Shown: one piece after another, positions 43,035-63,589 of the stretch
Layout: each line of letters begins with the position of its first letter
Numbering within the stretch: the first letter of the stretch is position 1
From: Nitrosopumilales archaeon
GTDB taxonomy: Archaea > Thermoproteota > Nitrososphaeria > Nitrososphaerales > Nitrososphaeraceae
Length of the DNA: 64,000 nucleotides
NCBI GenBank assembly: GCA_044507735.1
Contig: JBIQJB010000007.1
Span: 18,873-82,872, forward strand
Direction of reading: 5' to 3'
Notes under the pieces: model-generated
The model's input: the letters and a program-made list of their open reading frames with translations, nothing else
Told to the model about the DNA's origin: nothing
The model's database searches: none
Position numbers and translations under genes: made by a program

Positions 43035-43243
43035 GCAACTCCTGCCTTCTTGTACAGCATCTTTACGCATTCAGAATATGTGCGGTACTTGAATTTGATC
43101 TCGTCTATCGGGACATCTTGCTTCAAGAGATCTTTGTTAGTATCAATCTTGTATTTCTTGCCAATGTCCTGCAAGATAGTATTTACAGTGGAGTTGCGAT
43201 ACGATTCATCTATTAATTCCGCCACAATATACAATTGTGTCAT
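43031..43243 (-). CDS. Small hypothetical protein
   Basis: 70 aa, protein-like composition, divergent from the ATPase. Confidence 0.55.
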   Translation of the reverse strand: MTQLYIVAELIDESYRNSTVNTILQDIGKKYKIDTNKDLLKQDVPIDEIKFKYRTYSECVKMLYKKAGVA

Positions 43244-43330
43244 GCTTGCATATCAAACTATGCTCCATTACATGCGCAGGCAGCATGGCAACCTTATGTC
43301 CTTTGTCGGAATTCCATAGCACTTTTTAAG

Positions 43331-46006
43331 ATGTCAATTATATTGGAATCATCCTTGGACGGCCCTGGAAAATTCAACATAGGAAAAACCATGGACGGCA
43401 TGAAATTTGAGCTTGACCGGGCATCGCTTACAAAGCATGCAATAGTTCTGGGCGCAACTGGCTCCGGCAAGACTGTGCTTTCAAAAGTTATTGTAGAAGA
43501 AGCTGCCCTGCAGGGCATCCCGACATTTGCCATCGATCCAAAAGGAGACATTGGCAACCTTGCATTCAAGTCTGCCACGTTTGACTTCTCAAAATGGTGC
43601 GGAAAAGAGGCTGATGCTCTGAAAATCGACAGGGCGCAATATGCCGCCCACCTTCAAGAGACTTACCAAGAAAAGGCACGCGAATTCAGCATGGAATCAA
43701 CTTCCGTTGCCAAGAACTTTGAAAAGGTTACAGTCAGGATATTTACTCCAAAGTCATCAGCCGGACTTGCGGTTGGGATATCGCCTGATCTCTCTGCCCC
43801 AAAAGACTTTGACAAGCTGCTCAGCAATGACATTTCGTCTGCAGCCGATCTCCTCGACCTCACTTCGTTTAACTTGCTAAGGCTGGCCGGGTATGGCGAA
43901 GGCGACAGAAAGCAGGTAACCTTTGTTTCTGCAATCCTGGAGAACGCATGGAAAAATGGCGAAAACCTCAAGATAAGGGACCTTATCAAAAATATCGAGA
44001 ACCCCTCGTTCAGCTACATCGGATCGCTGCCGGTCTCAAAAGTGGTGTCCGAAAAGGAAAGAAAGGACCTTGCAACGAGGATTAACCTGCTAATATCGGA
44101 TCCAAAGCTCCGTTCCTGGTCGTCCGCAGAATCTATCAATTTTTCAGAACTGTTCAGCAGTCCCTCAATCAACATACTTGACCTCCGAAACATCCAGTCA
44201 GAGCAGGAAAAACACCTGTTTGTCGAGCTGATACTTCAGCGGCTGTTTCAGTGGCTCATCAAGCAGGGCAGTGCTCAGACTCTGCGTTACCTGCTGTATT
44301 TCGATGAAATCGCCGGCTACTGCCCGCCTGTAAGGGAACCTGCGTCCAAGAAGCTGCTTCTGCTCCTGATTAAACAGGCAAGGGCCTTTGGTCTTGGGAT
44401 GATACTTGCAAGCCAGAATGCAGTAGATCTCGACTACAAAGTGATCTCCAACGCTAATGTCCGCTTCATAGGAAGGCTGGGCGCGCAGCGCGATATCCAA
44501 CGCGTAAGCGTTGGGCTGGAGCTTGATTCTGACGCAGAAAGAGAAATTGCAAGACTGCGTCCAGGTGAATTCTTTTGCAACACGTTTGACCCCAAATTCA
44601 GATCGGTCATTAGATCCAGGTGGACCTTGACGTATCACAGGGGGCCACTTGAAGACAACGAGATTGCCGAACTCATGGCAGAATTCAAGAAGAAGAGCGA
44701 GGCGATCGTCAGCCAAGAGCAAGAAGAGGGGGAGGACGGGCCTGAAATCAAAGAAGAGGCAATTGAAGAAGATCTAGAAGAGCCAACCAAATTCCTGCCT
44801 GTCGTGGCACCCGAGAGCGAGATAGTGGCAGCGAGCGATGACGAGACGTTCTTCTTGTTAGAAAGGAAATTTGAGCCAAAGAACCTTCCTGCCTTTATCA
44901 AGCTTGGAAGTAATCTCAAGTCAGTCAAAGTACTGTCTGTAGAACCTGAAGAAAGGTTCTCTCCTGTCTTTGAACTGAGTGTTTCAGTTTTTGAAAAGGG
45001 CTACGTCAAGCAGACGCTCGACAAGATTGTCGAGCTTGCAGCATTTAACGACGGACTTGTTGAGCTGCCAGAGGAGCATTCCATAACATCGCACCGAATT
45101 GTTCCTGCAGAAGACCGCGGCAAAGCTGGGATGTGGAAAGGCGATATCCAAAGTGCAATCAACGGGATGGAAAAAGAGCTGATGCACAAGTTTGACATCC
45201 TGATCGAAGAAAAGAGAAAGGAGAACATCACAAGCAGGTCCGAAAAGCCACTGGCCAAGATAGCCGATATCAAAGCTAGCGTTGCTAGGCTGCAGCAGTC
45301 TATCAACACAGACATCGACTCTGTTAAAGAATACGAAAAGCTGTACAAGCAGCTAAAGAAGGAAAGCAAGAAGAAAAAGACGCTAAAGGCACGCCTGATA
45401 TCTGTAGAAAACAGGATTGAAACAAAGAAACAAAAGATCATCTCCACAAGGAGAAAGATCGAGCAGCTGCATACCAACCAGAAAGCATTGGAGGAAAAGC
45501 TAGAAGAGATCGAGCAGGATGAGGAAGAAAAATTCCACCACGCGCTTGGTAACATCAAGGCCAAGACAGACTACCATATCGCCGGCTGGCTCGTTGAGAC
45601 AATATATCGAGCGAGGATCCTCGTCAATGACTCAAAGGAGCATTATGGCGATGTCATGTGGAGCGCATACACTGGAAAGGGGACTTGGGGGAGGTGCTCA
45701 TCATGCTCTGTTCCTCTTGCAGAAGGCTCGACTTGCAGCTGCGGCAACTTGCTTTGCAGTACTCACCTTGCCTATTGCAAGATGTGCCTAGCACCTGCAT
45801 GCACGGAACACCGCGCGATGTGCCACATTTGCAGCACAATATTCTGCGCCTCACATCATATCAGATGTGAAATTTGCCGGTTCACTGCGTGCACAGGTCA
45901 CAGCGGCGTTTGCAGCATCTGTAACAGAAAGGTGTGCAACAATTGCTCCCAGAAAAAAGGGCTCATAAAGAGCAAGATAATCTGCGATGGCTGTGCTATG
46001 TCCTAG
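43331..46006 (+). CDS. HerA/VirB4/FtsK-clade ATPase (DUF87/DUF853-like) with coiled coil and Cys-rich C-terminus
   Basis: GATGSGKT, IDPKGD, LLYFDE, KQARAFGLG.ILASQN, Lys/Glu-rich coiled coil, many CxxC/CxxH motifs; ATG at 43331. Confidence 0.87.
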   Translation: MSIILESSLDGPGKFNIGKTMDGMKFELDRASLTKHAIVLGATGSGKTVLSKVIVEEAALQGIPTFAIDPKGDIGNLAFKSATFDFSKWCGKEADALKIDRAQYAAHLQETYQEKAREFSMESTSVAKNFEKVTVRIFTPKSSAGLAVGISPDLSAPKDFDKLLSNDISSAADLLDLTSFNLLRLAGYGEGDRKQVTFVSAILENAWKNGENLKIRDLIKNIENPSFSYIGSLPVSKVVSEKERKDLATRINLLISDPKLRSWSSAESINFSELFSSPSINILDLRNIQSEQEKHLFVELILQRLFQWLIKQGSAQTLRYLLYFDEIAGYCPPVREPASKKLLLLLIKQARAFGLGMILASQNAVDLDYKVISNANVRFIGRLGAQRDIQRVSVGLELDSDAEREIARLRPGEFFCNTFDPKFRSVIRSRWTLTYHRGPLEDNEIAELMAEFKKKSEAIVSQEQEEGEDGPEIKEEAIEEDLEEPTKFLPVVAPESEIVAASDDETFFLLERKFEPKNLPAFIKLGSNLKSVKVLSVEPEERFSPVFELSVSVFEKGYVKQTLDKIVELAAFNDGLVELPEEHSITSHRIVPAEDRGKAGMWKGDIQSAINGMEKELMHKFDILIEEKRKENITSRSEKPLAKIADIKASVARLQQSINTDIDSVKEYEKLYKQLKKESKKKKTLKARLISVENRIETKKQKIISTRRKIEQLHTNQKALEEKLEEIEQDEEEKFHHALGNIKAKTDYHIAGWLVETIYRARILVNDSKEHYGDVMWSAYTGKGTWGRCSSCSVPLAEGSTCSCGNLLCSTHLAYCKMCLAPACTEHRAMCHICSTIFCASHHIRCEICRFTACTGHSGVCSICNRKVCNNCSQKKGLIKSKIICDGCAMS

Positions 46007-50910: not shown

Positions 50911-52725
50911 CTAGGAGATCATAGCATTCTCAATATTGTTTGGCGGGCCTCCAATAGCACTGGATTCATCCAGTTTTATGGATTGAAACTCGTTATTCTG
51001 TATTATATTGTGGACAAGTGTGTTGTTGTAAGATCTATCAAGAATGCCAATGCCGTCCTTGTTTCCTACTACAGTATTGCTCATGATTAGATTGTCATAG
51101 CATTGCTTGTCGATGTAGATGCCATACTTGTCATTGTACCTTGCAATATTATCCTGAACAATGCTAGAATTTGTGAGCCAGTGAAGTCCGATACCTTCAG
51201 TGTTGTACTCCACTAGGTTGTTAGTTACGGTCACGTTAAAGCAGTATTTTGAGCATATGAACCCCTGGTTCCCGTTGTCGTGGATATGGTTTGAATCTAC
51301 AACAAAATTTCCTGATTCAGTGTGGGGATCAAGCCCGTACCTGTCATTTGCATAGATCTTGTTGTTGGTTATGGTGAAATTCTCGGCCCTGCTACTGTAG
51401 AATCCATAGTAGTTGTGGGCAATGGTAGAGTTGGCGATGGTGAAATTCCCTGTGCTCCTGTACTCGAGGGCCGCTCGTGCGTTGTCGGTATTGGATATGC
51501 CGCCTAGAGGGAATCCAAGATGTGTTATCGAAGAGTTTATCACATCCATTTTCCCGCCGTTTGTTGCCACAAGATATGGTCTTGGGTGGTACGAGTTACG
51601 GTCAGGAGCGTTTCTTTCAGAGTCCCACGAGGTGACTGTCGAGTTTATTATCGCGACTTTGCCTCCATCGACCCCTATCCTTCTTGGCAGGACATCTTGA
51701 GGATCTGACCTGATGAGCAGCTTTTCATTTGCGATCGTCAGCTGGGCGTCGTCTTTGAAAATAATTGTCTTGTTCATCATAAATTCGCCGCTATCTCCCT
51801 TATCATCGTCCTCTCCTTGCAACACAATCATCGCATCTGGGTATCTGGCATGCAGGCTGCTCAAGGTCCAACTCCCATTGGTGAGAATTAGATCTGTTTT
51901 GGGGTTTTCCTCAGCATCAAATTTGGTGGATAGCGTGTGATTTAGCCGTTCTGAAATATTCATGCTCAGCTTCTCTGGATACTCTGGGTTCAGCACATTG
52001 TTTGAATCATTATTGTTGCTATCTGTAAACCGTATTGTACCTTTGATGTTCAATAAATTTTCCATCAATGCGTTGCTGAACTGAAACTTGGGCGGGTCTC
52101 TGGGAGTAAAGGCGATTATGCTCGAGTTCCAATAGTGGATCCCAGTTTCAAGAAACGTGACAGCGTTTGCAATCTTACTGTTCTGAGCCAGGATTTCTCT
52201 ATCGACCAGGGCAATGTTGTTGAAGGTCGTTGGCGGGTAGCTCTTGTCGTACTCGCTGGTATTTGTCCAAGGCTTGACAACATATCCAAGGCGATTTAGC
52301 GCTTGTACCATTATGGGGTGCTTCTCTGCAAATGTATCTTCCAAGAAAAAGACAGCCTTTGAGACGTTGTATTTGAGAAGTGCATAGAGAACATGCTCTA
52401 GGTGGCTGCTACCGCCTTCTGGAATATAGAACGTCACTGTGACATTCCGTACCGAATCTCCATACAGGATGCCCTGCCTCTGGCCTTTCTGGATGGTAGC
52501 TTGTGCCTGCACATCTAGGTCAGCTCCTTCTGCCATTATGTAGGGCGCTATCCATCTCAAGGGCGATTCTCTGCTATCGTCGCGCAAATACCACTGGTAG
52601 ATGCTAAGCTCGACATTGCTCCAGATATCTAAAAAATGATGTCCGACTAGTGGCGCGGCGATATACCAAACCATCAACCCGACAGCAATGACAACAATGA
52701 CAGGCACTAGGGAAAATCTATCCAT
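50911..52725 (-). CDS. Membrane-anchored protein: degenerate CE4/NodB-like domain plus AlgG-like (mannuronan C5-epimerase-type) beta-helix
   Basis: N-terminal TM; VTVTF..VL.ALLKYNVSKAVFFL; NSTVTSWD..RPYL..MDVINS.I..LG; HNYYGFYS; YGLDPHT. Confidence 0.8.
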   Translation of the reverse strand: MDRFSLVPVIVVIAVGLMVWYIAAPLVGHHFLDIWSNVELSIYQWYLRDDSRESPLRWIAPYIMAEGADLDVQAQATIQKGQRQGILYGDSVRNVTVTFYIPEGGSSHLEHVLYALLKYNVSKAVFFLEDTFAEKHPIMVQALNRLGYVVKPWTNTSEYDKSYPPTTFNNIALVDREILAQNSKIANAVTFLETGIHYWNSSIIAFTPRDPPKFQFSNALMENLLNIKGTIRFTDSNNNDSNNVLNPEYPEKLSMNISERLNHTLSTKFDAEENPKTDLILTNGSWTLSSLHARYPDAMIVLQGEDDDKGDSGEFMMNKTIIFKDDAQLTIANEKLLIRSDPQDVLPRRIGVDGGKVAIINSTVTSWDSERNAPDRNSYHPRPYLVATNGGKMDVINSSITHLGFPLGGISNTDNARAALEYRSTGNFTIANSTIAHNYYGFYSSRAENFTITNNKIYANDRYGLDPHTESGNFVVDSNHIHDNGNQGFICSKYCFNVTVTNNLVEYNTEGIGLHWLTNSSIVQDNIARYNDKYGIYIDKQCYDNLIMSNTVVGNKDGIGILDRSYNNTLVHNIIQNNEFQSIKLDESSAIGGPPNNIENAMIS

Positions 52726-53087
52726 CGATACCGCCCCTGACCATTTTGTTGTTGTCTCTTGCTAGACGCGGATTTCCAAACTCTATAGTCATCACCGTCA
52801 GAGGAATAAACAGCAGTTGCGTGCGAGCTAGCTCTGATAGTCTGAACAAGTATGACAGAATATTGTCGTTATGCCAATCTACTTAACAGATGCTTTTTTT
52901 TGTTGCATCAAATATTTAGCAAAACGACTTTCTGAGACTTGTTCGACAAGAACTTTTGTTTGAAAATATCCGTAGATGGTTTGATATGTAGCTCACTTTA
53001 GTTTTAATCGCAATTCGCTCGTCATACAATGTGCACATATGAAAGTGACTCAATGCTCAAATAGCAATCTCGTGACTGACGTTTGCA

Positions 53088-54140
53088 TTGTCAAGAAGAA
53101 AGATTATTGAGAAAGATAATAGTAGTAACGACAACAATAGCCATAGCAATAGCAACAGCCATCATCATCACCATCATCACTACAATGGCAGCCTCGGCAC
53201 CAGGGTTCTTGTTGTCGGCCTCGGTCAGCTCGGGCTTCCAGTGGCGCAGTATGTAAAGCAAAGAGGATTTGACACCTATGGTCATGACATCAGCACCAGA
53301 GCCATGGAGAATGCTGAGAGGTTGGCCGGAATAAAGAAAGCAGGCAATTTTAGCGATTTCGACGTTTACATCTTGTGCGTGTCGACGCACATGCCCAACG
53401 ATATCTACCTCCCTTACACCGATAACCTGATGGATGTTGCCCGTCGGATATCAGAACAGGCCGACGATGGAGCTCTTGTGTGCATAGAGAGTACGATTCC
53501 ACTAGGCACTGCAAGAAAGATCTGTAGTATGTTCAACCACAGGCTGCATGTTGCGCATGTGCCGCATAGATGGTATGTGCACGATCAGGAAAAGTATGGA
53601 GTCAACCAGATGCGCGTGGCTGGTGGGATCGAACCCTGTTGTCTGGCCATGGCCGTTCAATTCTATTCAGGCGACTTGAATGGCAATGCCTTTTCCAGCA
53701 ACAATAGCCGGATAAAGGGAAGCTTGGGGATTCCAATTCATCCGGTCAGAAGCGCGGAGGTGGCGGAGCTATCCAAGACAGTTGAAAACGCACACAGGTA
53801 CTTGCAGATAGCGTTCGCAGAGGAGCTGTATATCTGGTGCCGCCTCAATAACATTGACTTCTGGGAGATGAGGGACGCCCTCAATACCAAGTGGAATGTA
53901 AATATCTTGGAGCCAAGAGAAGGTATTGGTGGGCATTGCCTGCCCAAGGATACGAGGATGTTCTTGAACTCATCCCAACTGATCAAGAGCAAGATACTCT
54001 CAGCAGCGCTTGAAGTTGATTTGGACTATAGGAACTACAAAAAGTTCGAAAGCCAAGCAACAACAACGACTACAGCAAATACGACCTCCCTAGAGGACAG
54101 CAACAGCGGGATTGGAAGAAATGTATCGATTCCGGTTTGA
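53088..54140 (+). CDS. UDP-glucose/GDP-mannose/UDP-HexNAc dehydrogenase family protein (short form)
   Basis: GLGQLGLP, CVST, IESTIP.GT, HVPHR, AELSKTVEN..R...IAFAEE, GIGGHCLPKD. Confidence 0.87.
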   Translation: MSRRKIIEKDNSSNDNNSHSNSNSHHHHHHHYNGSLGTRVLVVGLGQLGLPVAQYVKQRGFDTYGHDISTRAMENAERLAGIKKAGNFSDFDVYILCVSTHMPNDIYLPYTDNLMDVARRISEQADDGALVCIESTIPLGTARKICSMFNHRLHVAHVPHRWYVHDQEKYGVNQMRVAGGIEPCCLAMAVQFYSGDLNGNAFSSNNSRIKGSLGIPIHPVRSAEVAELSKTVENAHRYLQIAFAEELYIWCRLNNIDFWEMRDALNTKWNVNILEPREGIGGHCLPKDTRMFLNSSQLIKSKILSAALEVDLDYRNYKKFESQATTTTTANTTSLEDSNSGIGRNVSIPV

Positions 54141-54197
54141 CTGCGACAACGACGACACTGATAGCTGTCGTAGTTGCATGCGGTAGGCTGCTGGTGC

Positions 54198-54833
54198 ATG
54201 AATAGGAAGCAGTCTATACTGGCATTTGGCGCGCATCCTGACGACATCGAAATAGGGATGGGCGGTACCGTAGCCAAACTGGTAGGCATGGGCTACGATG
54301 TGTATCCTGTCATATGCACCCTGCCGGATTTTACAAAGACGGACAGGAAAGAAGAGCGCAAGTCGGAAGCCATCATGTCCTCCAAAATTCTGGGAACGAG
54401 GCCTCCCACGATCCTTGACCTTGCTCCGGACGAGCTGCAGTTTGGCCGCAAGTTTGTCACCCTGCTCGACGAAATCATCCAAAAGTATCAACCGGAAGCG
54501 GTTTTTACACAGTGGATTGGCGACTCTCATCAGGATCACTATGTGCTTACAAGGGCAGTAATGGCCGCTGCGCGGTATACAAAGAACCTCATGATGTACG
54601 AAACAACTATTCCAGGAGGCATAACGGAGCAAGCGTTTAGACCACAGCTGTTCATAGATATCAGCGACACGCTTGAAGTAAAAACTGATGCTCTCAACTG
54701 TTTCAACTCCCAGAAGGCTCGCGGAGGGCACTTGTGGATAGACGCCGTTATCGGCAGATCACGCTACAGGGGATTTCAAATCCGGACAGAATCTGCAGAG
54801 GCGTTTGAGGTTGTCAAAGTAAACAAATGGTAA
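54198..54833 (+). CDS. PIG-L/LmbE-family de-N-acetylase
   Basis: AHPDDIE.GMGGT, RKSEA, DSHQDH, SQ, AEAF. Confidence 0.9.
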   Translation: MNRKQSILAFGAHPDDIEIGMGGTVAKLVGMGYDVYPVICTLPDFTKTDRKEERKSEAIMSSKILGTRPPTILDLAPDELQFGRKFVTLLDEIIQKYQPEAVFTQWIGDSHQDHYVLTRAVMAAARYTKNLMMYETTIPGGITEQAFRPQLFIDISDTLEVKTDALNCFNSQKARGGHLWIDAVIGRSRYRGFQIRTESAEAFEVVKVNKW

Positions 54834-54894
54834 AAGATTGCCAAATCAAAACCCCGCTCTCTCAAAAAAGAGGGAAAGAGAAAAAAATGAGGGT

Positions 54895-56286
54895 TTAGGC
54901 GGGGGGATTTATTTCCCTGATGCTAAACCACTTGAAGTCGACGTCGGATGCGTTATCCCATCTGAAAGTGGCGACCGGACCGCCCCACAGGATTACCTGA
55001 TCCTTGGAGCCTCCACAGATGTTGGAATCAGCTCTCCATCCTCCTCTGTCAAGATATTCGTTGACCTTGCGCCATGATGTCCTGTCGTTCTTTTCGTCAA
55101 CCCACAGCTCCTGCTTTACTGCGGTTGAACCGTCAGGCAATTTTACATCATAGATCACAGTCTTTATGCCGATCCACCTTCCCTCCAAGCCGTCGGTGGA
55201 GCCAGCTATCCTGTTGGTCACTGCATATCCGTCATTGTGCCACAACTCCTTTACCGAGGCGGTGTTTCCGTTATAGTATATCCTTGGCTTGACGCCGGTT
55301 CCTTCGCATTCCTGGTTCTCCCCGTTCGGTGCTTGCTTATGTGTGTGCCGCCCGCTCCTTGCATACCAGCTAAAGTAGCCGTTTGAGTCATAGTCATTCA
55401 GCTTGACATAGCCTGTCATTTCCACATTCTTCCAGTCGTTTGGATCCTGCATGTAGCCTTTGGTGGCAAGGACTTTTTGATTATACGTCTTGATCCTTTC
55501 TGGACTGTATCCGCTCTTTGTGAAGACGTTCATGCGGATCTGTCCGTCTTTTACCTTCCAGGAGCCGTCCTTGTTCTTTGTTATCTTGTCCTTGGTGGTG
55601 AATTTGTCCTCATCGACGTTTGGATTGTCCATATTCATGAACCATTCGTCGCCTCCTTTCTTGGTAGGATACAGCTCCTTTATTCCAAACTTGTCTATTC
55701 CGGTGCCGCTCGTGTAGTCATCGTCACCGTTCGCTCCTGATCGTGACGTATCATCCTTTTCTCCATTCACGTCTATCTCGGTTATGCTTGCCCATTGGTT
55801 CATGGTGTTGCCGTTGACAGTTATCTTGACATATCTCGCGGACACTCGTTGCTGGATGGTGTATTTCTCGAGTGAATTGGTCTCTCCGCTGCTCTTGCCC
55901 GAATAGACATCGGTAAAAGATCCTCCGTCAGAAGAGACTGAAACTACAAAGTCGTTGACTCTTTCATCTCCCCTGTACCATGCGATATTGACGCTACAGA
56001 CTACTGCCTGTTCTCCGAGGTCTGCAGTAATCCATGATCCAATTCCGTAGGCAGACCACCTGGTATTGAGGTTGTTGTCGAGTGTGTTTGTTGGTACGTT
56101 GCCATCGTCGCTGCTAGCACGAAGACCTGCAATTGTAAGGTCGTCGCATATGGAACCTGTTGCAGCACTTGCGTGCCCTGTGGGCAAAATGGACGTCATG
56201 CCTACAAAAGATGCTGCAAGCAGTCCTGCTAGGGAGAGGGCTTCAATTTGTCTGCCGCTTCCCGATTTTTTCTCTAGAGATTTCAT
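54895..56286 (-). CDS. Secreted CBM32/F5-8 type C domain protein with a C-terminal beta-sandwich domain
   Basis: Signal peptide; DGNVPTNTLDNNLNTRWSA, WITADLG, IAWYRGDER, ARYVKITVNGN..WASITE. Confidence 0.85.
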   Translation of the reverse strand: MKSLEKKSGSGRQIEALSLAGLLAASFVGMTSILPTGHASAATGSICDDLTIAGLRASSDDGNVPTNTLDNNLNTRWSAYGIGSWITADLGEQAVVCSVNIAWYRGDERVNDFVVSVSSDGGSFTDVYSGKSSGETNSLEKYTIQQRVSARYVKITVNGNTMNQWASITEIDVNGEKDDTSRSGANGDDDYTSGTGIDKFGIKELYPTKKGGDEWFMNMDNPNVDEDKFTTKDKITKNKDGSWKVKDGQIRMNVFTKSGYSPERIKTYNQKVLATKGYMQDPNDWKNVEMTGYVKLNDYDSNGYFSWYARSGRHTHKQAPNGENQECEGTGVKPRIYYNGNTASVKELWHNDGYAVTNRIAGSTDGLEGRWIGIKTVIYDVKLPDGSTAVKQELWVDEKNDRTSWRKVNEYLDRGGWRADSNICGGSKDQVILWGGPVATFRWDNASDVDFKWFSIREINPPA

Positions 56287-56564
56287 CTCGCACTAGGCGT
56301 CTGATGAATCTTATTTAAAATTGCGCGAGGTAGTCTATGCTCCAGTCAGGGACTTTCCTGATCGTGAAATTCTCTGACGTAAAAAAGACTCTATAGCTCT
56401 ACCACGACAAACGATCTTTTTTATCTCATACCAATTTTTACCGGAGGCAACTATGTTAAGCAAAACTGCAAGTTATTCTTCTTAACCCATTAATACTTCA
56501 GCAGCAACAACATCGATGCCATGACGATCCTTCTTGTTACTGCTTACAATTGTGGTGAATCCTG

Positions 56565-58037
56565 ATGAACATGCAGCGGCAAGAAAAAAGCGTCTATCCG
56601 CATAGAGAGCTAGACAAGAAGCGCTGGTTAGTCAGGTACCTCTGCCTTGCTGCGCTTGGAGTAATATTGTCGATCAAGGTCTATCTTTTGCTTTTCATTT
56701 TTGACTTTACTGTAGGAGTGTATAGCTTTATCACAACTTTTGTCTTGTTTTCCACTCTACTGCTATCTTATGTGAAATTCAGAGATCCATACTTTATCGC
56801 TCTGGAGAATGCCGGAGACAAGAATAACAATTCATCGCCACTTGTCTCAGTAATTCTGCCCGTGAAAAATGAAGAAGGTCACATTGCGGACTGTGTCAAA
56901 TCATGCATAAATTCGACATATCCAAACAAGGAAATCATTGTAGTAAACGATGGCAGCACGGATGGCACAGCAAGAGTTCTTGATGATGTTTACCGGGCAA
57001 GTGCGAATCCAAGCCTGCACATCATACATCTATCAAAAAATGTAGGAAAAAAGAAGGCTATAGAAGCTGGCGCAAGCATCGCCAATGGCGAAATCTATGT
57101 CTTCATAGACAGCGATTGTGAGATGGCAGCAGATGCCATAGAAAAATTTGTCAGGATCTTTAATTCTGACCACACTGTTGGCGCAGTAACCGCCCACGGC
57201 AGGGTAAGAAACGTAAGTGAGGGGAACGTACTTGAAAAAATTGAGGACGTATGGTATGACGGCCAGTTTCGCATCATAAAAGGGATGGAAAGTTCGTTCT
57301 CATCAGTGACATGCTGTTCTGGCGCCCTGAGTGCATATAGGAAGATTGCAATCCAGTCACACATTTCGGCTTGGGCGCATGAGAAATTCCTTGGCAGAGA
57401 GTTCAAGTTTGCAACAGATAGGCGTCTCACCGCATACGTTCTAGCCGGCGGGCCGCCTCCTCAAATGCGGCAAGAACCAAAAGAAGCAGTAGAACAAGAT
57501 CCAACAATACTGCAGACAGGCAACGACGAACTGGAAGCAATGAAGATGTCCTCTGATCCTGACGAAGAAGACAACAACACTTCCAAAGAATCTTCGGCAA
57601 ATTGGAAGGTGCAGTATAGCCCGAGCATATTTGTATCGATCGGCCCACCGTCCACATTTACCGCATTCATCAGACAGCAAATCAGATGGCGCAAGAGCTT
57701 CATCCGGAGCGTTTTTGCCACAGGCAAGGTATACTGGAGGAGGCCGATTCCCGCGGCAATGCTCTACTATCTGCAGATGGGATTGAAGTTCTTTCGTCCC
57801 TTCATTGTGCTCAAGACCCTTGTTCTCCTACCGCTTGCCGGGGACTACATTACTGGCTTGCTCTTTGTTTCAGCCGTGCTTTTCACCGGCATGATCTATG
57901 GTATTGACTTTCGACTGCGCAATCCCGGCAGCAGTTTGTGGGTGTACAGGCCACTAATGACATTGCTCTCAACGTTCGTTCTAACCTGGCTTCTCATCTA
58001 TTCTGCAATTACAATCCGAAAAATGTCATGGAGGTAA
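56565..58037 (+). CDS. Processive GT2 polysaccharide synthase, hyaluronan-synthase/NodC-like
   Basis: Two N-terminal TMs; PVKNE, VNDGSTD, N.GKK.A, FIDSD, CCSGALSAYR, TDRRLT, QQIRWRKS; C-terminal TMs ending SWR. Confidence 0.9.
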   Translation: MNMQRQEKSVYPHRELDKKRWLVRYLCLAALGVILSIKVYLLLFIFDFTVGVYSFITTFVLFSTLLLSYVKFRDPYFIALENAGDKNNNSSPLVSVILPVKNEEGHIADCVKSCINSTYPNKEIIVVNDGSTDGTARVLDDVYRASANPSLHIIHLSKNVGKKKAIEAGASIANGEIYVFIDSDCEMAADAIEKFVRIFNSDHTVGAVTAHGRVRNVSEGNVLEKIEDVWYDGQFRIIKGMESSFSSVTCCSGALSAYRKIAIQSHISAWAHEKFLGREFKFATDRRLTAYVLAGGPPPQMRQEPKEAVEQDPTILQTGNDELEAMKMSSDPDEEDNNTSKESSANWKVQYSPSIFVSIGPPSTFTAFIRQQIRWRKSFIRSVFATGKVYWRRPIPAAMLYYLQMGLKFFRPFIVLKTLVLLPLAGDYITGLLFVSAVLFTGMIYGIDFRLRNPGSSLWVYRPLMTLLSTFVLTWLLIYSAITIRKMSWR

Positions 58038-58062
58038 GAAGAAGGAAGAAGAGGGAAAGATT

Positions 58063-58263
58063 ATGGCTCATAAGGGAAAGGTCCTCAGCAGGATAGATGT
58101 CATACTAGTTGGAGCAGGGATGGTGATAGCTTTTTCTCTTATACTGATAAGGTTGTTAGGCCTTGTTGAATCACCCACTGCGAGTTCATCTGAAATTGTT
58201 GCAAGTTTTCTCCAGCGCCTCTGTGTCACAATGCCGTTTGACCTCATGACGCTGTGCAAGTAG
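58063..58263 (+). CDS. Small single-TM protein, possible synthase accessory subunit
   Basis: 25 nt after the GT2 stop; one hydrophobic helix. Confidence 0.55.
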   Translation: MAHKGKVLSRIDVILVGAGMVIAFSLILIRLLGLVESPTASSSEIVASFLQRLCVTMPFDLMTLCK

Positions 58264-58437
58264 TTTTGTAGAGAAGATTCGTGAGGCATTTGGATTGCAT
58301 GGGAATTGACAATTCACCAACTGAGGTAAATGTTATGTTCATGCTATCTTGTTAGAGTAAATACACTTGCGCTTCCATATTCAGATTAATGTTCGATAAT
58401 GGAGAAAAGCCAAACACCGCTCCTCATTCATTAGAAA

Positions 58438-59253
58438 ATGAATCATAACTCGATCCTTTTTCGTACAACTTTCGGAGCGATGGTCGTCATTGGCAGTGTT
58501 TCTTTTCTGCTACTACTATACATTGTATCCGGCAGCCAGCTTGCAAGCCAAGGCGATACGGGGGCAAGCGCCAATACTGCCACCGCATTTATCAATGCCT
58601 ACGCACAGTCGAGCGATTTCAATCTGAATGGGACCTCGGAGAACGACACTAGTGGTGGCAACAATAATCATGAATCCATTCCCACGACCACTGGGACCTT
58701 TAATTATGATAGTAGTAGTACTGGTGCAAACACCGATCAGTTAGAGAACACGCCTGCATTCATGGAGATTAGGGGGCACATAGGAGGCATGATTACTGAA
58801 GATTCTACCGGCGGGGCGACAATAGGAGATGCGGAGAACGAGACTGCTCAATCTATTCGAGGAGGAAAGGAATATGTGATGACGGGACATTGGAGAGTCG
58901 TTGCCAACCAGAGTATTCTGGAGAGATTCGTTGCAAACCTGACTATTGCGCGGACTGACGGAATGGAATCTCACATTATCATAATTGAAGATGAGGGGCC
59001 TCGCTTTGATCTAAGCAGCACTGGCAACATCATAACGTCAGAGTTTCCGGCGACAATTTATCGTAACAACTTTAACCTTACAACCATTTCTGCACCGGTG
59101 CAGCTATCGCTCAGAGGCAACAATATCATGCAGTTTAGTGCAACCATCAACAATGACAATAGTACTTCCTTGCCCGCCAGCTTGCAGATACTGCGACTGC
59201 TTGATGAAAGACCTGTATTTGGGACTGTAGACATAGTTACAACAGAGAGTTAG
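58438..59253 (+). CDS. Membrane-anchored or secreted beta-rich protein
   Basis: N-terminal TM; G.I..., G.W.V, F.A, PVFG motifs shared with 60393..61124. Confidence 0.72.
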   Translation: MNHNSILFRTTFGAMVVIGSVSFLLLLYIVSGSQLASQGDTGASANTATAFINAYAQSSDFNLNGTSENDTSGGNNNHESIPTTTGTFNYDSSSTGANTDQLENTPAFMEIRGHIGGMITEDSTGGATIGDAENETAQSIRGGKEYVMTGHWRVVANQSILERFVANLTIARTDGMESHIIIIEDEGPRFDLSSTGNIITSEFPATIYRNNFNLTTISAPVQLSLRGNNIMQFSATINNDNSTSLPASLQILRLLDERPVFGTVDIVTTES

Positions 59254-59393
59254 GGGTGACCTCTGCTCTCTACAAGATATCTTTTCTGTTATTTCCAGTG
59301 CAGCGTTAGTCTTCAGTAAAATCTCACAACAGGTTTTGGCGGAATGCTCAATAGTTCAAGTTTCAAACAAGTTGCGGAGGACACCTTGCAGAG

Positions 59394-60356
59394 TTGCAGC
59401 TGACATTCTTCACCAATGATCAAAACGTCACACCGCTGTTGGAGGGGTCTGAATGCAATGGCACAGCTGCCGCTTGCCTGAAAATAATGAACAAGCCGCT
59501 TATTGTACACAACATTGATGCTCTGAATAGGACTCTAAAAGGGAAGATAACTGGCGTGGCAATTCCAAGAGATCTAAAAGGCATACTGGACGCAATTAAT
59601 GAGCATTGCCGTGATATCAATATCAGAGAAATTGATGATTGCAACAACAGCTCCTGGAATGGGTCGGACAATACTAAGCAGCAGCAACAACAACAAAACT
59701 ATTGTGATGCCATCATCAACTGGGCTGAGGATTCGGTCAGAGTGCCCATTAATTCGATAGTACATTCATCATCACCTGAAGACATCAAGGTGGATCTGAT
59801 AACTTATCCATGGCATTTTCTGGCAGCGGTTCAGAGCTTGCTCAAAGAGCATGTCACAACCACGTATATCTCTCCTACCGCGAGAATCAGCAAGACTTCC
59901 GTCATTGAAGGGCCCTGCATCATTGAGGACAACGTGGTTCTGGATGACTTTTGCAAGATAAAAGGACCAGCCTACATATCTGCAGGCAGTACTGTCGGCA
60001 TGTGCTCTCTGGTTCGAAGTTCAATACTGGGAAAGAATACCAAGATAGGGTTTAACTGTGAAATTGCCAAGAGCTTCTTTTATGGCAACACCAAAATGCC
60101 TCACCAGAATGAAATACTGGACAGCCTAATCGGCGACAATGTCTGGTTTGGTGGATACTCTGCAACAGCCAATGTCCTGCTGTCAAGGGAGAACGTCAAA
60201 TTCCAGATTAACGGGAATCTTTTGGACACAGGCACCGATCACTTTGGAGCTGTTGTCGGCAACAATAGTACCGTGGGCGCTAACGTTCTGATTCTGCCTG
60301 GAAGACAGATCCCTCCAAATAGCAGGATTCAAGCCGGAACGATTGTCCGCAAGTAA
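59394..60356 (+). CDS. GlmU-like protein: degenerate nucleotidyltransferase plus left-handed beta-helix acetyltransferase
   Basis: NKPLI, YPW.FL, hexapeptide repeats IEGPCII, DSLIGDNVWFG, FGAVVG; no GxGxR loop. Confidence 0.8.
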   Translation: MQLTFFTNDQNVTPLLEGSECNGTAAACLKIMNKPLIVHNIDALNRTLKGKITGVAIPRDLKGILDAINEHCRDINIREIDDCNNSSWNGSDNTKQQQQQQNYCDAIINWAEDSVRVPINSIVHSSSPEDIKVDLITYPWHFLAAVQSLLKEHVTTTYISPTARISKTSVIEGPCIIEDNVVLDDFCKIKGPAYISAGSTVGMCSLVRSSILGKNTKIGFNCEIAKSFFYGNTKMPHQNEILDSLIGDNVWFGGYSATANVLLSRENVKFQINGNLLDTGTDHFGAVVGNNSTVGANVLILPGRQIPPNSRIQAGTIVRK

Positions 60357-60392
60357 AAAATAAGCAGGAAGGTATTTTCTGTCCGGATATTA

Positions 60393-61124
60393 TTATCCTA
60401 CATGTGTGTTGTTTGACAGTGATCGCTCGTGCACTGCTACTCCGTAAATTGGCTGGCCGGAGAAGATCTCGTCAAGCTCGGGTTCTCCAAGACTTATGGA
60501 CAAGTTCTTGCCATTTACTAATAATATCGACACCGCGACGCTCTTCCATGATTGGTTCTGACTGCTCTCTGATACGTCCACTGTCCCGCCGAGCACCACG
60601 TGACTGTTTACCAGCTGGAATGTATTCATTGTAAAGTTGTCAATCCTGTAGTGGATACCCCCGGTCCCATTAAAGTCTGCATCAAATGATGCATTGTTGA
60701 TGCTGCGGACTTGGAGCGACCAGTTTCCAAAAAATGTCTGCTCGATCTGACCATTGCTCAAGTTAAAATGGGCACTTGCAATATTGCCCGAAAGCCGCAT
60801 GTCAGCCACTCTGCTTCCTCCGACCCCTGTATTGTTTGTGACAGACGCGATCAAATTATCTATGCGTTCCCTGATGCCGCCTACGCTGGCGCTGTTTTGT
60901 GCCGGATCGTTGTTGCTATCGATTATGACACTCATCCCCCGGCTGTCATTCTGACCGCTAGTTCGCTGACTAGTGATTATAGTTGTAGTTGTAGAATTGG
61001 TTGTTACCTCTTCCCTCTCTTCCAATAACGCTGCACTTGATGAAAGGGGAGGGAAGACCAGCAAAGCGCCAGCAACAACGACAGACAAACTGAAAGCACC
61101 TGCTACTATGTCATACCCGCGCAT
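60393..61124 (-). CDS. Secreted beta-rich protein; distant paralogue of 58438..59253
   Basis: Signal/TM; LSGNIAS, GNWSL, FDADF, GTVDV, QPIYG. Confidence 0.72.
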   Translation of the reverse strand: MRGYDIVAGAFSLSVVVAGALLVFPPLSSSAALLEEREEVTTNSTTTTIITSQRTSGQNDSRGMSVIIDSNNDPAQNSASVGGIRERIDNLIASVTNNTGVGGSRVADMRLSGNIASAHFNLSNGQIEQTFFGNWSLQVRSINNASFDADFNGTGGIHYRIDNFTMNTFQLVNSHVVLGGTVDVSESSQNQSWKSVAVSILLVNGKNLSISLGEPELDEIFSGQPIYGVAVHERSLSNNTHVG

Positions 61125-61342
61125 GGTAATGCAATTTCGCTTCCTGTGCGTTTATGTGTTCTCTTCTCTTAATCTGTACTCCCTCATCCTATCTTGGATT
61201 GAAAATGGATCTTAAGAATTAGTAGTTGGTTGCCGTGATTGGTTTTGTTTCCCGAATTGTTTTTTCATAAAAAAAACATTGGGTAGGCAAACTAGATTAC
61301 AGTAGTGGATGTCATAAAAACGATAAATGTGCGAATCCGGCG

Positions 61343-63406
61343 ATGGATATTCGTAATTCGGCCGGAGCGGACGGTAGTGACGACGCACGCTCAAGAAGAC
61401 GTTCAAGCGTCATTTCGCTGCTAGCGGTCACATTGCTCTCTTCGATAATTCTCGGAGGGCTTTTTGTAGCGACACAACAGCCGCTGTACGCACAGACCGA
61501 AGAGACAGAACAGATGATTGCACAAATTGCCGAACAAGTTGCAGATGCTCAAGGTAGCGATGAGGCAGACATCGAGCAGGTTCTCCAACAGATCGCTTCA
61601 CAGGTAGCGGAGAACTCGGACGACGAGACGGCCGAGCAGACCATAACTCAGCTGGCACAACAAGCTGCTGAAGGTGGCAACGTCTCACAGGCGATAGCAC
61701 AGATCGCAGAACAAGCTGCTGAAGGAGGTGACGAAGCTGAACAGGCCATCACGCAAATAGCGGATCAAGCTGCTGAAGGAGAGGACATTTCCCAAGCCAT
61801 AGTCCAGTATGCGGGTCAAATTGCAGGAACAGAAGAAGAAGGATCTGAACCTAATGGTCCGCCCGCAGATGAAACGACTGATGGTGGTACGGAAGACAAT
61901 GCTACAGGCACAGAGCCGGGGAACGTAACTGACACAGGGCCCAATGAGAATGTCACCGACGGCCAGCCAGAGAATGTAACGGGCACCACCGCTGGTGAAG
62001 GTGTTGAACAGCAAATCATCCAGGTGGCACAACAGGTGGCCAACGCGACAGGTGCGGACGAAGGAGTGGTCGAACAAGTCATACAGCAGATTGCAGTCCA
62101 AACTGCAGAAGCTGGCGGAAATTCCTCTCAGGTCATTGAGCAAATAGCGCAGCAGATTGCAGAGACGCCTAGTGGTCCCGTTTCACAATCAATAGCCCAG
62201 ATAGCAGAACAGCAGGCCGCTGGAAACAGCACTGCAGTAGATCAGGCAGTTACGCAGATCGCAGAGCAGGTAGCAACCGCCCCGCCGACGGCAGGTCAGA
62301 CCATAATCTACCAGACAATAGTTCAAGTCGCAGTCCAGATAGCGATAGGCCAAAACATCAACCAAGAGATCACACAGGTTGCCCAGCAGGTGGCAGGGCA
62401 GACAGGTGCCGATCAGCAATCTATAGAGCAGGTTCTCCAGCAGCTCGCAATTCAGACTGCAGGGGAAGGAGGAAATGTTGAACAGGCAATCGCTCAGATC
62501 GCAGAACAGGCCGCGCAAGGAGGTGCCGTTTCACAATCAATAGCCCAGATAGCAGAACAGCATGCAGGTGGCCAGTCGAAGGAGGTAGCCCAAGATGTAA
62601 TCCAGATTGCAGAACAGGCCGCGCAGGGCACAGACGTCTCGCAGGCGATATCCCAAGCTGCCGAACAGCGGGCAACAACGACGACACAACCAACAGCAAC
62701 AACTGACATCAACCAGCAAATAACGCAGATTGCAAAGCAGGTGGCAGTGGCAGTGGCGGAGCAGACAGAAGGATCAGCAGAATATAGCAAGGTAGAGCAG
62801 GTCATACAACAGATTGCGTTACAGGTGGCTGCAAGCGGCGGTACCGGTCAGGACATCAACCAAGTCGTACAACAGATTGCTTCGCAGGTGGCCGATAATC
62901 CGCGCGGAGTCGTATCACAATCCATAGTCCAACTTGCAATGCAGCAAGCAAGCGGCAAGAACATCAACCAAGCAATAGTCCAGGTAGCGCAGCAGGTTGC
63001 AGCTGGCGAGAACATCAACCAAGCAATAACCCAAGTGGCCGTGCAAGAGTCAGCGGGCAGAGGAGCGGAGCAGAGGATCACACAGGTTGCCCAGCAGGTG
63101 GCAGAACAGACCGGATATGATGATCCGCAATCAATAGAGCAAATAATAGGTCAGATCGCGATTCAGGTAGCCGGAGAAGGCGGAGACGCAGAACAAGCGA
63201 TAACCCAGCTTGCACAGCAGGCCGCACGAGGAGGAGAGGTTGCCCAGGCTATAACCCAGCTTGCACAGCAGGAAGCCGCAGGTGCTGGTAGCGACGTAGC
63301 CCAAGACATCACTCAAGTGGCAGAGCAGGTGGCTGAAGGGGAAGACGTGGCTCAAGCAATAACCCAGGCTGCAAGCCAAACAGCTGGTCAAGTACCCCCA
63401 CGATAA
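61343..63406 (+). CDS. Secreted Gln/Ala-rich repeat protein
   Basis: Signal peptide ending LYAQ; dozens of (I/V)xQ(I/V/L)AxQxA units; almost no aromatic residues or Cys. Confidence 0.85.
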   Translation: MDIRNSAGADGSDDARSRRRSSVISLLAVTLLSSIILGGLFVATQQPLYAQTEETEQMIAQIAEQVADAQGSDEADIEQVLQQIASQVAENSDDETAEQTITQLAQQAAEGGNVSQAIAQIAEQAAEGGDEAEQAITQIADQAAEGEDISQAIVQYAGQIAGTEEEGSEPNGPPADETTDGGTEDNATGTEPGNVTDTGPNENVTDGQPENVTGTTAGEGVEQQIIQVAQQVANATGADEGVVEQVIQQIAVQTAEAGGNSSQVIEQIAQQIAETPSGPVSQSIAQIAEQQAAGNSTAVDQAVTQIAEQVATAPPTAGQTIIYQTIVQVAVQIAIGQNINQEITQVAQQVAGQTGADQQSIEQVLQQLAIQTAGEGGNVEQAIAQIAEQAAQGGAVSQSIAQIAEQHAGGQSKEVAQDVIQIAEQAAQGTDVSQAISQAAEQRATTTTQPTATTDINQQITQIAKQVAVAVAEQTEGSAEYSKVEQVIQQIALQVAASGGTGQDINQVVQQIASQVADNPRGVVSQSIVQLAMQQASGKNINQAIVQVAQQVAAGENINQAITQVAVQESAGRGAEQRITQVAQQVAEQTGYDDPQSIEQIIGQIAIQVAGEGGDAEQAITQLAQQAARGGEVAQAITQLAQQEAAGAGSDVAQDITQVAEQVAEGEDVAQAITQAASQTAGQVPPR
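62178..62562 (+). repeat. Exact intragenic DNA repeats in the Gln/Ala-rich gene
   Basis: 37-nt CCGTTTCACAATCAATAGCCCAGATAGCAGAACAGCA at 62178 and 62526; 29-nt GATCACACAGGTTGCCCAGCAGGTGGCAG at 62368 and 63076. Confidence 0.85.
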
Positions 63407-63589
63407 TCATCTTCGCCACAGTAGCATATAATGACATAAGGACTGCATCAATGGAGAAGTAGGAGAAGAAGACAATAAGGTGCCGATGATTAGAGAGGCG
63501 TATATATGCATCTCGTCATCCGCCTTTTCTTTTTGTTGTTTTTTGTTAAACTCTATAAGCATCTGTATCAAGAAGATATAGAGTAACAG

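Follow-up and report, generated by a model that had tools for sequence, protein, structure and literature searches.

A candidate synthase-dependent exopolysaccharide gene cluster of soil Nitrososphaera, centred on a hyaluronan synthase-like glycosyltransferase

A gene cluster at positions 50911 to 63406 of a 64,000-nucleotide stretch of archaeal DNA (G000:C33:18873-82872, referred to throughout as the window, whose end is also the contig end) was analysed and is read here as a synthase-dependent exopolysaccharide locus of soil Nitrososphaera, the product of which would be an N-acetylhexosamine (HexNAc)-based and probably acidic polymer modified outside the cell. A probability of roughly 0.55 is assigned to this reading. 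Within it, an amino-sugar backbone with de-N-acetylation represents the best-supported chemistry, uronic acid in the polymer is plausible at about even odds, and C5-epimerisation of the polymer is possible. The open reading frames (ORFs) between 50911 and 63406 lie exactly where an initial annotation of the region had placed them and encode the gene content that it described, which includes a processive GT2 synthase, an AlgG-like beta-helix protein, a short sugar dehydrogenase, a PIG-L de-N-acetylase and a secreted CBM32/jelly-roll protein.

Comparative evidence indicates that these genes form a conserved and recurrent functional unit around the synthase, beyond what chance would give. A locus scan gave 80 loci, 19 of which (L028-L046) were annotated by tblastn. 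All 11 genes were found in the same order and orientation, with amino-acid identities of 73-94%, on metagenome contig L028, and the order CBM32-GT2-small ORF-271-LbH-243-repeat protein-DUF6659 is kept on the Nitrososphaera metagenome-assembled genome (MAG) contigs L020 and L022, both of which end within the CBM32 gene, probably because the jelly-roll domain encoded there is multi-copy. The more distant ortholog locus L023 (GT2 58% identical) contains a short dehydrogenase, PIG-L, GT2 and a 123-aa ORF in that order, and the unpublished genome G009 (GT2 60% identical) contains GT2, an 84-aa ORF and a short dehydrogenase. The genes for the 271-aa, 243-aa, LbH and repeat proteins accompany the synthase in close relatives only, with the 271-aa gene syntenic in L020, L021, L022 and L028 and the LbH gene found neither in the more distant ortholog loci nor in the paralog clusters. 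Within the group at 50-56% identity, a jelly-roll gene lies directly upstream of GT2 in L032, L033, L035, L036, L037 and L043 and was not seen there in L029, L030, L031 and L034.

The genome that carries the window also harbors a paralogous cluster on contig C37, with genes for a CBM32/jelly-roll protein, a beta-helix protein, a GT2, a CE4 protein, GlmS and a short dehydrogenase. Its beta-helix protein (580 aa) is 38% identical over the full length and is encoded by a gene that begins 2 nt after the end of the GT2 paralog; the GT2 paralog is 37% identical, the short dehydrogenase (295 aa) is 47% identical, and the CE4 protein (1481 aa) is secreted and contains a CE4 domain above threshold together with seven chitobiase-type domains. 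A third GT2 paralog, on contig C40, lies between a CE4 gene of 246 aa, upstream, and an ORF of 100 aa. A deacetylase gene is thereby present with all three GT2 paralogs (PIG-L in the window, CE4 on C37 and C40), and a GlmS gene is present in the C37 and L042 clusters. The synteny check suggested in the initial annotation recovered the cluster complete with 11 genes in L028 and as its right half in L020 and L022, next to the paralogous cluster on C37.

Associations between the same gene families were also observed further afield. In a co-occurrence scan of 40 sampled relatives, with matches counted at E 1e-30 or better, the GT2 family was detected in 8 genomes and the beta-helix family in 5, four genomes having both, and in G003, G007 and G017 the beta-helix gene adjoins a GT2 paralog on one contig. 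A database protein of 924 aa (P0273) unites GT2 (DDKxLT, QQLRW), LysM and beta-helix (YGFDHHD, IIFSR) in one polypeptide. This protein is named 'hyaluronan synthase' by one source. Among distant GT2 relatives (34-43% identity), the gene of a full-length WecC-like dehydrogenase overlaps the GT2 start in L038, L039 and L042, and a CE4 gene directly follows GT2 in L040, L041 and L042, the last of which adds a double-CBM32 protein and GlmS.

The synthase (56565-58037, + strand, 490 aa) exhibits hydrophobic segments at residues 21-71 and 418-486, corresponding to N- and C-terminal membrane helices, and D129, D133, D182-S-D184, D285-R286 and Q371-Q-I-R-W375 are invariant in its family alignment; the class I hyaluronan synthase (HAS) hallmarks DxD, DRxLT, QxxRW and C-terminal membrane helices are present. 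Among solved structures, the C-terminal two-thirds is matched best by HAS1 (3e-11) and Chlorella virus HAS (5e-11), followed by chitin synthase (0.003) and BcsA (0.01), and the motifs of the window protein and HAS are in register (CCSGALSAYR/CISGPLGMYR, FATDRRLT/LGDDRHLT and QQIRWRKS/QQTRWTKS). In tblastn comparisons with annotated plasmid genes, HasA aligned with GT2 residues 84-489, NodC with residues 92-384, past the QxxRW motif, and PgaC with residues 72-273 only; the C37 paralog aligns with NodC nearly over its full length (153 bits), and the window GT2 also matches Chitin_synth_2 (31 bits). Because of the PDB matches, the motif register and these alignment spans, the enzyme is placed by pairwise and profile scores in the HAS/NodC/chitin-synthase branch of processive GT2s and not in the PgaC/BcsA branch. 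A comparison with HasA, NodC and IcaA, as suggested in the initial annotation, therefore points to the HAS/NodC side on those scores, with no curated cut-off reached.

Directly after the catalytic DR motif, the synthase contains an acidic insertion of about 50 residues (297-346; window 57453-57602), which is found in all five GT2 orthologs compared, has no counterpart in the C37 paralog or in the aligned HAS structures, and holds a conserved L-x-T-G-x-D-x-L-E-x-M-K-x-S-x-D-P motif. A 66-aa single-pass membrane protein (58063-58263, +) with one hydrophobic helix is encoded from 25 nt after GT2. A counterpart follows the synthase in each of the six ortholog loci examined, and R10, D12, G17, A23 and F24 around the helix are invariant in the family, so that the pairing of a HAS-like GT2 with a small membrane protein, as first annotated, is upheld by the HAS/NodC-type alignments, the invariant motifs and this neighbor.

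The membrane-anchored beta-helix protein (50911-52725, -, 604 aa; Beta_helix/NosD in Pfam) comprises an N-terminal helix (residues 1-30), a degenerate CE4-like alpha/beta region (about 90-235) and a right-handed beta-helix (about 310-600), and is AlgG-like in sequence and in predicted fold, as had been proposed. Its PDB sequence matches are mannuronan C5-epimerases in eight of eight cases (AlgG at 1e-11; AlgE4, AlgE6 and two others). When the AF2 model (mean pLDDT 82.3) was searched with Foldseek, the top four matches were AlgG entries (E 1e-11 to 8e-10, TMt 0.58-0.64, rmsd 3.0-4.2 Å), with the next match at 7e-8 and tailspike, AlgE6, AlgE4 and RbmB lyase ranked behind AlgG. The motif YGLDPHT aligns with YGIDPHD of AlgG, in which DPHD is the catalytic motif; across 23 family members D466 is invariant, and Y463, G464, L465, P467 and H468 each recur in 90% or more of them. 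The similarity of the N-terminal region to CE4 proteins is weak (4m1b, E 0.015; PF01522 17 bits vs a cut-off of 23.1). A third beta-helix paralog (572 aa) was located in L027 (G000:C17:112000-131000), 2.3 kb downstream of a full-length WecC-like dehydrogenase gene, with translation-factor, Fe-S assembly and methyltransferase genes in between.

The short WecC-like NAD-dependent sugar dehydrogenase (53088-54140, +, 350 aa) consists of the N-terminal (Rossmann) and central domains only. Its best solved relatives are the UDP-ManNAcA dehydrogenase 4r16, Cap5O and an NDP-GalNAcA dehydrogenase; the motifs sktvEN (Lys/Asn) and GGHCLPKD (Cys/Asp) align with 4r16, and the alignment stops at residue 270-290 of solved enzymes of about 420 residues. 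The cluster-associated dehydrogenases are closest to UDP-ManNAc dehydrogenase (WecC) models and not to UDP-glucose dehydrogenase, and by sequence the window enzyme belongs to the UDP-HexNAc (WecC) branch and not to the UDP-glucose or GDP-mannose branch. It represents a large family at about 60% identity (homologs P0121-P0240), and those proteins of the family that are named derive from MAGs of Nitrososphaeraceae, Nitrosopolaris or Thermoproteota; the best 120 homologs range from 235 to 448 aa, and PF03720, the UDP-binding domain, occurs in none of the 120. The N-terminal tail of the window protein is His-rich, with a natural run of seven His. The protein is probably an active oxidoreductase; judged from its domains, UDP-sugar binding of the usual kind would not be possible, and it may act on another substrate or as a sensor. 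Of the nucleotide-sugar dehydrogenase initially annotated, the N-terminal and central domains and the catalytic motifs are therefore retained, whereas the UDP-binding domain is absent and the branch is that of WecC.

The PIG-L/LmbE-family de-N-acetylase (54174-54833, +, 219 aa), predicted to be cytoplasmic, is encoded from 33 nt after the dehydrogenase gene and matches its Pfam model (PF02585) with 70.4 bits vs a cut-off of 28.2, which supports its first assignment. AHPDDIE and HQDH occur in the translation, AHPDD and HxxH being the metal motifs of PIG-L/LmbE proteins, and a BshB1-like match of 109 bits lies below its cut-off. An ortholog adjoins the dehydrogenase and GT2 genes in L023 and L028.

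The CBM32/jelly-roll protein (54895-56286, -, 463 aa) carries an N-terminal hydrophobic signal or anchor segment, an F5/8-C (CBM32) domain and a 270-aa jelly-roll domain (window 54898-55719, -), in keeping with the secreted CBM32 protein that had been annotated. The CBM32 is closest to that of the alginate lyase AlyQ (E 6.7e-35), followed by those of two further alginate lyases and YeCBM32; CBM32 modules of alginate lyases bind uronates. More than 850 homologs, about 50% identical throughout and without a Pfam model, make up the family of the jelly-roll domain; the domain stands alone or together with modules that include CBM32, Big and cadherin-like ones, and the genome of the window holds at least five further copies. 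The AF2 model is concanavalin-like (mean pLDDT 85.6); Foldseek ranked PL36 (Aly36B at the top) and PL14 lyases first at TM about 0.4, interleaved with lectin-like domains, VIA-align gave Z of 10-14 alike for lectins, GH16 and PL7/14/36, and the nearest named Atlas clusters were PF14099/PL14/heparin-lyase-I-like (0.90-0.92, with 116-136 of 256 features shared). An alignment of 32 members gave only scattered matches against Pfam, at E 0.0019 or worse, and its profile gave one chance match (E 0.75) against PDB sequences. A lyase role, as drawn on in the initial annotation, is backed only by weak fold and language-model leads.

Four further products complete the cluster. The LbH acyl/acetyltransferase (59394-60356, +, 320 aa), cytoplasmic by prediction, corresponds to the C-terminal half of GlmU behind a degenerate N-terminal domain of about 135 aa: it matches Arch_glmU (TIGR03992) over profile positions 214-393 only (120.8 bits vs a cut-off of 292), and no NTP_transferase Pfam match was obtained at E 0.01 or better, so that the GlmU-like assignment stands for the LbH half, whereas the nucleotidyltransferase half, the activity that HasC or GlmU would supply, has been lost. 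Two proteins with N-terminal hydrophobic segments, of 271 aa (58438-59253, +) and 243 aa (60393-61124, -), are membrane-anchored or secreted and gave no Pfam or NCBIfam match; the Atlas neighbors of the 271-aa protein are all hypothetical proteins of Nitrososphaerota, an archaeal group to which its families are confined. They had been annotated as paralogs of each other, a relationship ruled out by BLASTP (E 1.6) and hhalign (probability 0.1%). The anchored Gln/Ala-rich protein (61343-63406, +, 687 aa; Q 18%, A 17.5%) contains about 23 copies of a repeat of about 17 residues, as had been noticed earlier; the repeats are visible at the protein level, with one 26-bp tandem row only in the DNA.

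The following mechanism is proposed for the cluster. The GT2 and the 66-aa protein would polymerise UDP-activated N-acetylhexosamine-type sugars at the inner membrane face, and the chain would be threaded out through the C-terminal helices of the GT2 itself, as in hyaluronan, chitin and Nod-factor synthases. The short dehydrogenase, PIG-L and LbH proteins would alter the precursor or the nascent chain, by C6 oxidation to a hexosaminuronic acid and by N-acetyl removal and re-acylation; outside the cell, the anchored CE4-like/AlgG-like protein might abstract the uronate C5 proton, leading to epimerisation or beta-elimination, and the secreted CBM32/jelly-roll protein might bind the acidic polymer and perhaps cut it. 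Hydropathy fits this topology, as the dehydrogenase, PIG-L and LbH proteins have no hydrophobic segment and are predicted to be cytoplasmic, while every other product has at least one. An acidic polymer is suggested by the AlgG-like beta-helix, the alginate-lyase-type CBM32, the full-length WecC-like dehydrogenases coupled to related synthases and the catalytic motifs of the short dehydrogenase, and an amino-sugar polymer by the deacetylases with all three GT2 paralogs and by GlmS in the C37 and L042 clusters. The most specific version, an 'acetamido-alginate' in which a beta-linked N-acetylhexosamine chain made by the HAS/NodC-like synthase undergoes C6 oxidation by the short dehydrogenase and extracellular AlgG-like C5-epimerisation (e.g., ManNAcA to L-GulNAcA), is rather unlikely; in it, the loss of the UDP-binding domain would reflect action of the dehydrogenase on a nascent or lipid-bound chain and not on a UDP-sugar. 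If true, this version would give archaea their first C5-epimerase system at the polymer level and would add a new way of making a hexosaminuronan.

Several observations weigh against an acidic, extracellularly modified polymer. The distribution is patchy, with a GT2 ortholog of at least 58% identity in only 1 of the 40 sampled relatives, and the curated models of the synthase are matched far below their cut-offs: PgaC/IcaA (TIGR03937) at 131.8 bits vs 422.3, with residues 55-272 covering profile positions 10-220 of 407, and NodC (TIGR04242) at 111.4 bits vs 550. For the beta-helix protein, the AlgG model (NF038177) gives 61.7 bits vs a cut-off of 700 (E 5.2e-17; profile 142-415 of 519), the last D of the AlgG DPHD is Thr, and the column of the AlgG Arg (iiiSR), which lies one turn after the DPHD motif and is presumably the carboxylate-neutralising residue, has Lys here (FICSK) and Leu/Ile in the paralogs. 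Its N-terminal region lacks the Asp pair of the CE4 TFDD motif, since TFDI of 4m1b aligns with TFYI, and T98, F99 and Y100 are invariant in the family, which makes a canonical deacetylase unlikely there. The match of the short dehydrogenase to TIGR03026/NF040825 ends at position 293 of 413 (128.8 bits vs a cut-off of 189.8), and a Pfam scan detected no PF03720 in it; the sole PF03720 of the genome lies elsewhere, on C17, in the full-length (487 aa) WecC-like dehydrogenase. A winged helix-turn-helix (wHTH) domain, PF14947, occurs in 7 of the 120 best homologs and is N-terminal in the four scanned. Because PF03720 is absent and homologs carry a wHTH, the protein may sense or regulate and not make a UDP-uronic acid. 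The jelly-roll domain has no decisive family match, and a lyase is no more than a reasonable guess. Contigs of one RNA library, at 99% identity or more, lie on the dehydrogenase gene, across its junction with PIG-L, on the genes for the CBM32, 243-aa and repeat proteins, and on the gene for the 271-aa protein at its 3' end; carrying neither strand nor level, and with DNA carry-over possible, they are a weak hint of expression. None of them lies on the GT2 or beta-helix gene, which shows nothing either way. A biofilm transcriptome of ammonia-oxidising archaea (AOA), in the available text of PMC12448741, reported that carbohydrate-active enzyme genes proposed earlier were not differentially expressed, in other strains.

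Part of this evidence would suit a neutral or cationic polymer of N-acetylglucosamine (GlcNAc), similar to chitin/chitosan or to poly-N-acetylglucosamine (PNAG), partly de-N-acetylated and free of uronic acid, in which the beta-helix protein would be a glycosidase-type trimming or release enzyme with the role of PgaB or PelA and the short dehydrogenase a regulator or a member of another pathway. The best curated GT2 scores are indeed those of PgaC/IcaA and NodC, the C37 paralog extends this to a nearly full-length NodC match, a deacetylase is the sole helper found with all three paralogs, GlmS occurs in two clusters, the dehydrogenase lacks the UDP-binding domain and its family is sometimes fused to a wHTH, the AlgG Arg position is unconserved in the beta-helix family, and beta-helix hydrolases and tailspikes are among the fold matches. 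However, only uronate C5-epimerases are among the PDB sequence matches of the beta-helix, which keeps the catalytic DPH, the CBM32 is nearest to alginate-lyase modules, full-length WecC-like dehydrogenases are translationally coupled to related synthases, and the short dehydrogenase retains all its catalytic motifs, so such a polymer is considered unlikely, though by no means negligible. A polymer or glycoconjugate retained in the cell envelope, for example as a wall-like sheath or S-layer anchor, in place of a shed matrix, with the repeat, 271-aa and 243-aa proteins as envelope parts, appears improbable: five neighboring proteins are membrane-anchored, four close relatives keep those three genes in synteny with the synthase, and the available text of PMC11559005 proposes an amino-sugar-rich outer layer in the related Nitrosocosmicus, but neither L023 and L029-L037 nor the C37 cluster has the extra genes, and occurrence in 1 of 40 relatives suits an accessory trait over an essential layer.

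Two further explanations are given very little weight. The enzyme triad is formally parallel to NodC/NodB/NodA and NodC aligns through QxxRW, which would allow a short decorated chito-oligosaccharide signal, Nod-factor-like, with the GT2 producing an oligomer, PIG-L removing one N-acetyl group and LbH re-acylating; yet the HasA alignment spans the whole C-terminal membrane region (84-489) where that of NodC ends at 384, polymer-directed extracellular modules (CBM32, beta-helix) stand with the synthase, and the LbH gene does not follow it into distant ortholog loci and paralog clusters, which together make such a signal highly improbable. The genes could also be neighbors by descent alone without any joint function, as they occupy both strands in at least four transcription units and full-length synteny is found mostly among close relatives. 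This seems scarcely credible against the recurrence of the same gene kinds in the diverged C37 cluster (37-47% identity), the adjacent GT2 and beta-helix genes in three other species, the P0273 fusion, and the overlapping dehydrogenase-GT2-CE4 operons of distant relatives. The exopolysaccharide locus with a HexNAc-based, probably acidic product is accordingly preferred.

A search for shared regulatory motifs in the intergenic regions of the cluster found a 9-11-nt word, ACTCTATAG, which recurs with variants in three intergenic regions and could be a promoter element, and no other shared motif among these regions. The form ACTCTATA(G/A) was observed at 52778-52788 (between the beta-helix and dehydrogenase genes), 56388-56396 (between CBM32 and GT2) and 63548-63557 (between the repeat gene and DUF6659). 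Beyond the window, the genome continues into contig C7, read in reverse, where DUF6659 is followed by a DedA/VTT-like membrane protein (weak match), a PIN-like gene, a family-less 487-aa protein and a protein of 277 aa whose C-terminal domain is a strong match to D-glucuronyl C5-epimerase (PF06662, 127 bits; L026:15337-16170, +, on G000:C7, about 4 kb past the window). The last gene adjoins that of the 487-aa protein and keeps the same place in L020; it was not counted as a cluster member because a PIN-domain gene intervenes and it is absent from the more distant annotated loci.

The genes upstream of the cluster are unrelated and include a riboflavin operon, a HerA-like ATPase, aldehyde and proline dehydrogenases and an inositol monophosphatase; the HerA/FtsK-like ATPase (43235-46006, +, 923 aa; DUF87, 47 bits) has the riboflavin operon on one side and the proline-catabolism genes on the other. 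The eCIS core domain PF13699, unusual for an archaeon, occurs (120 and 100 bits) in two paralogs of 532 aa (34203-35801, +) and 508 aa (36500-38026, +), one of which also has a weak peptidoglycan-binding match.

DNA nearly identical to 50911-60356 (at least half of the sampled words) was present in 19 public runs from 9 studies, labelled as soil, mangrove, landfill, compost and seawater metagenomes; the Nitrososphaera lineage with the cluster either has a wide distribution or is often co-sampled. Biofilms and aggregates are known from soil ammonia-oxidising archaea, the chemistry and the genes of their matrix being essentially uncharacterised, and the locus provides defined, testable candidate genes for a polymer that Nitrososphaera would secrete and that might serve as biofilm matrix. 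In the available text of PMC12448741, a capacity for extracellular polymeric substances (EPS) is proposed for all Nitrososphaeraceae from genomes, and putative EPS of unknown composition is seen by scanning electron microscopy; that of PMC11559005, on the possible amino-sugar-rich outer layer of Nitrosocosmicus, also cites the pgaABCD literature. None of the matches listed in a full-text literature search on mannuronan, hyaluronan/chitin synthase, PgaC and C5-epimerase contained Nitrososphaera.

The initial annotation knew of no characterised archaeal example of a de-N-acetylated and C5-epimerised uronic/amino-sugar polymer. An S-layer glycosaminoglycan-like chain and iduronic acid are known from Halobacterium according to the available part of PMC3068255, which also lists putative glucuronyl C5-epimerases for euryarchaea and Korarchaeum. 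The novelty would thus lie in the pathway and not in the chemistry class, as glycosaminoglycan-like and uronic/amino-sugar glycans have already been described in archaea. Three archaeal families seem to be unexamined, namely the AlgG-like beta-helix proteins with a degenerate CE4 region, the short WecC-like dehydrogenases and the jelly-roll family of more than 850 members. If the polymer is acidic and epimerised, alginate-type post-polymerisation chemistry would be extended to archaea, with a bearing on the trapping of cations (Cu, NH4+) around cells.

Among known systems, the cluster can be compared with the class I HAS and has operons (Chlorella virus HAS, vertebrate HAS1, streptococcal/Bacillus HasA), with which it would share a single membrane GT2 that polymerises and exports, the C-terminal half of the window GT2 being best matched by solved HAS with SGxLxxYR, DRxLT and QQxRWxKS in register, and a dehydrogenase gene close to the synthase. 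It differs in the low identity (about 26%), the 50-residue acidic insertion, the putative small membrane partner, the added extracellular proteins that would modify the product, the WecC-like dehydrogenase without the UDP-binding domain and the lack of an intact nucleotidyltransferase (HasC analogue), so that the has-operon parallel first drawn holds for the HAS-like GT2 beside a dehydrogenase but not for the type and architecture of the dehydrogenase or for the nucleotidyltransferase. The alginate system of Pseudomonas/Azotobacter (Alg8/Alg44, AlgD, AlgG/AlgE, AlgL), also invoked initially, is resembled in the extracytoplasmic AlgG-like beta-helix coupled to a GT2 and in a CBM32 of the alginate-lyase kind, whereas DPHT replaces DPHD, the Arg position is unconserved, the beta-helix protein is anchored at its N-terminus and fused to a degenerate CE4-like region, an Alg8-like synthase is missing, a dehydrogenase of the UDP-HexNAc type takes the place of one of the GDP-mannose type, and no PL5 AlgL, AlgK/E/X or PilZ partner was seen in the window cluster.

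PNAG systems (PgaABCD/IcaADBC) likewise have a small membrane protein directly downstream of the GT2 (cf. PgaD, IcaD), a de-N-acetylase and an extracellular CE4-like module, and PgaC/IcaA is the best NCBIfam model of the window synthase; in contrast, PgaC aligns with the N-terminal half only, the window GT2 has DRxLT as in solved HAS, the deacetylase is a predicted cytoplasmic PIG-L, and the CE4-like domain is without the TFDD Asp pair. NodC/NodB/NodA resemble the cluster in the NodC alignment past QxxRW and in the company of a deacetylase and an acyltransferase, and differ from it in the NodC score (111 bits vs 550), in the unrelated folds of PIG-L and LbH, and in the presence here of extracellular modules that would be directed at a polymer.

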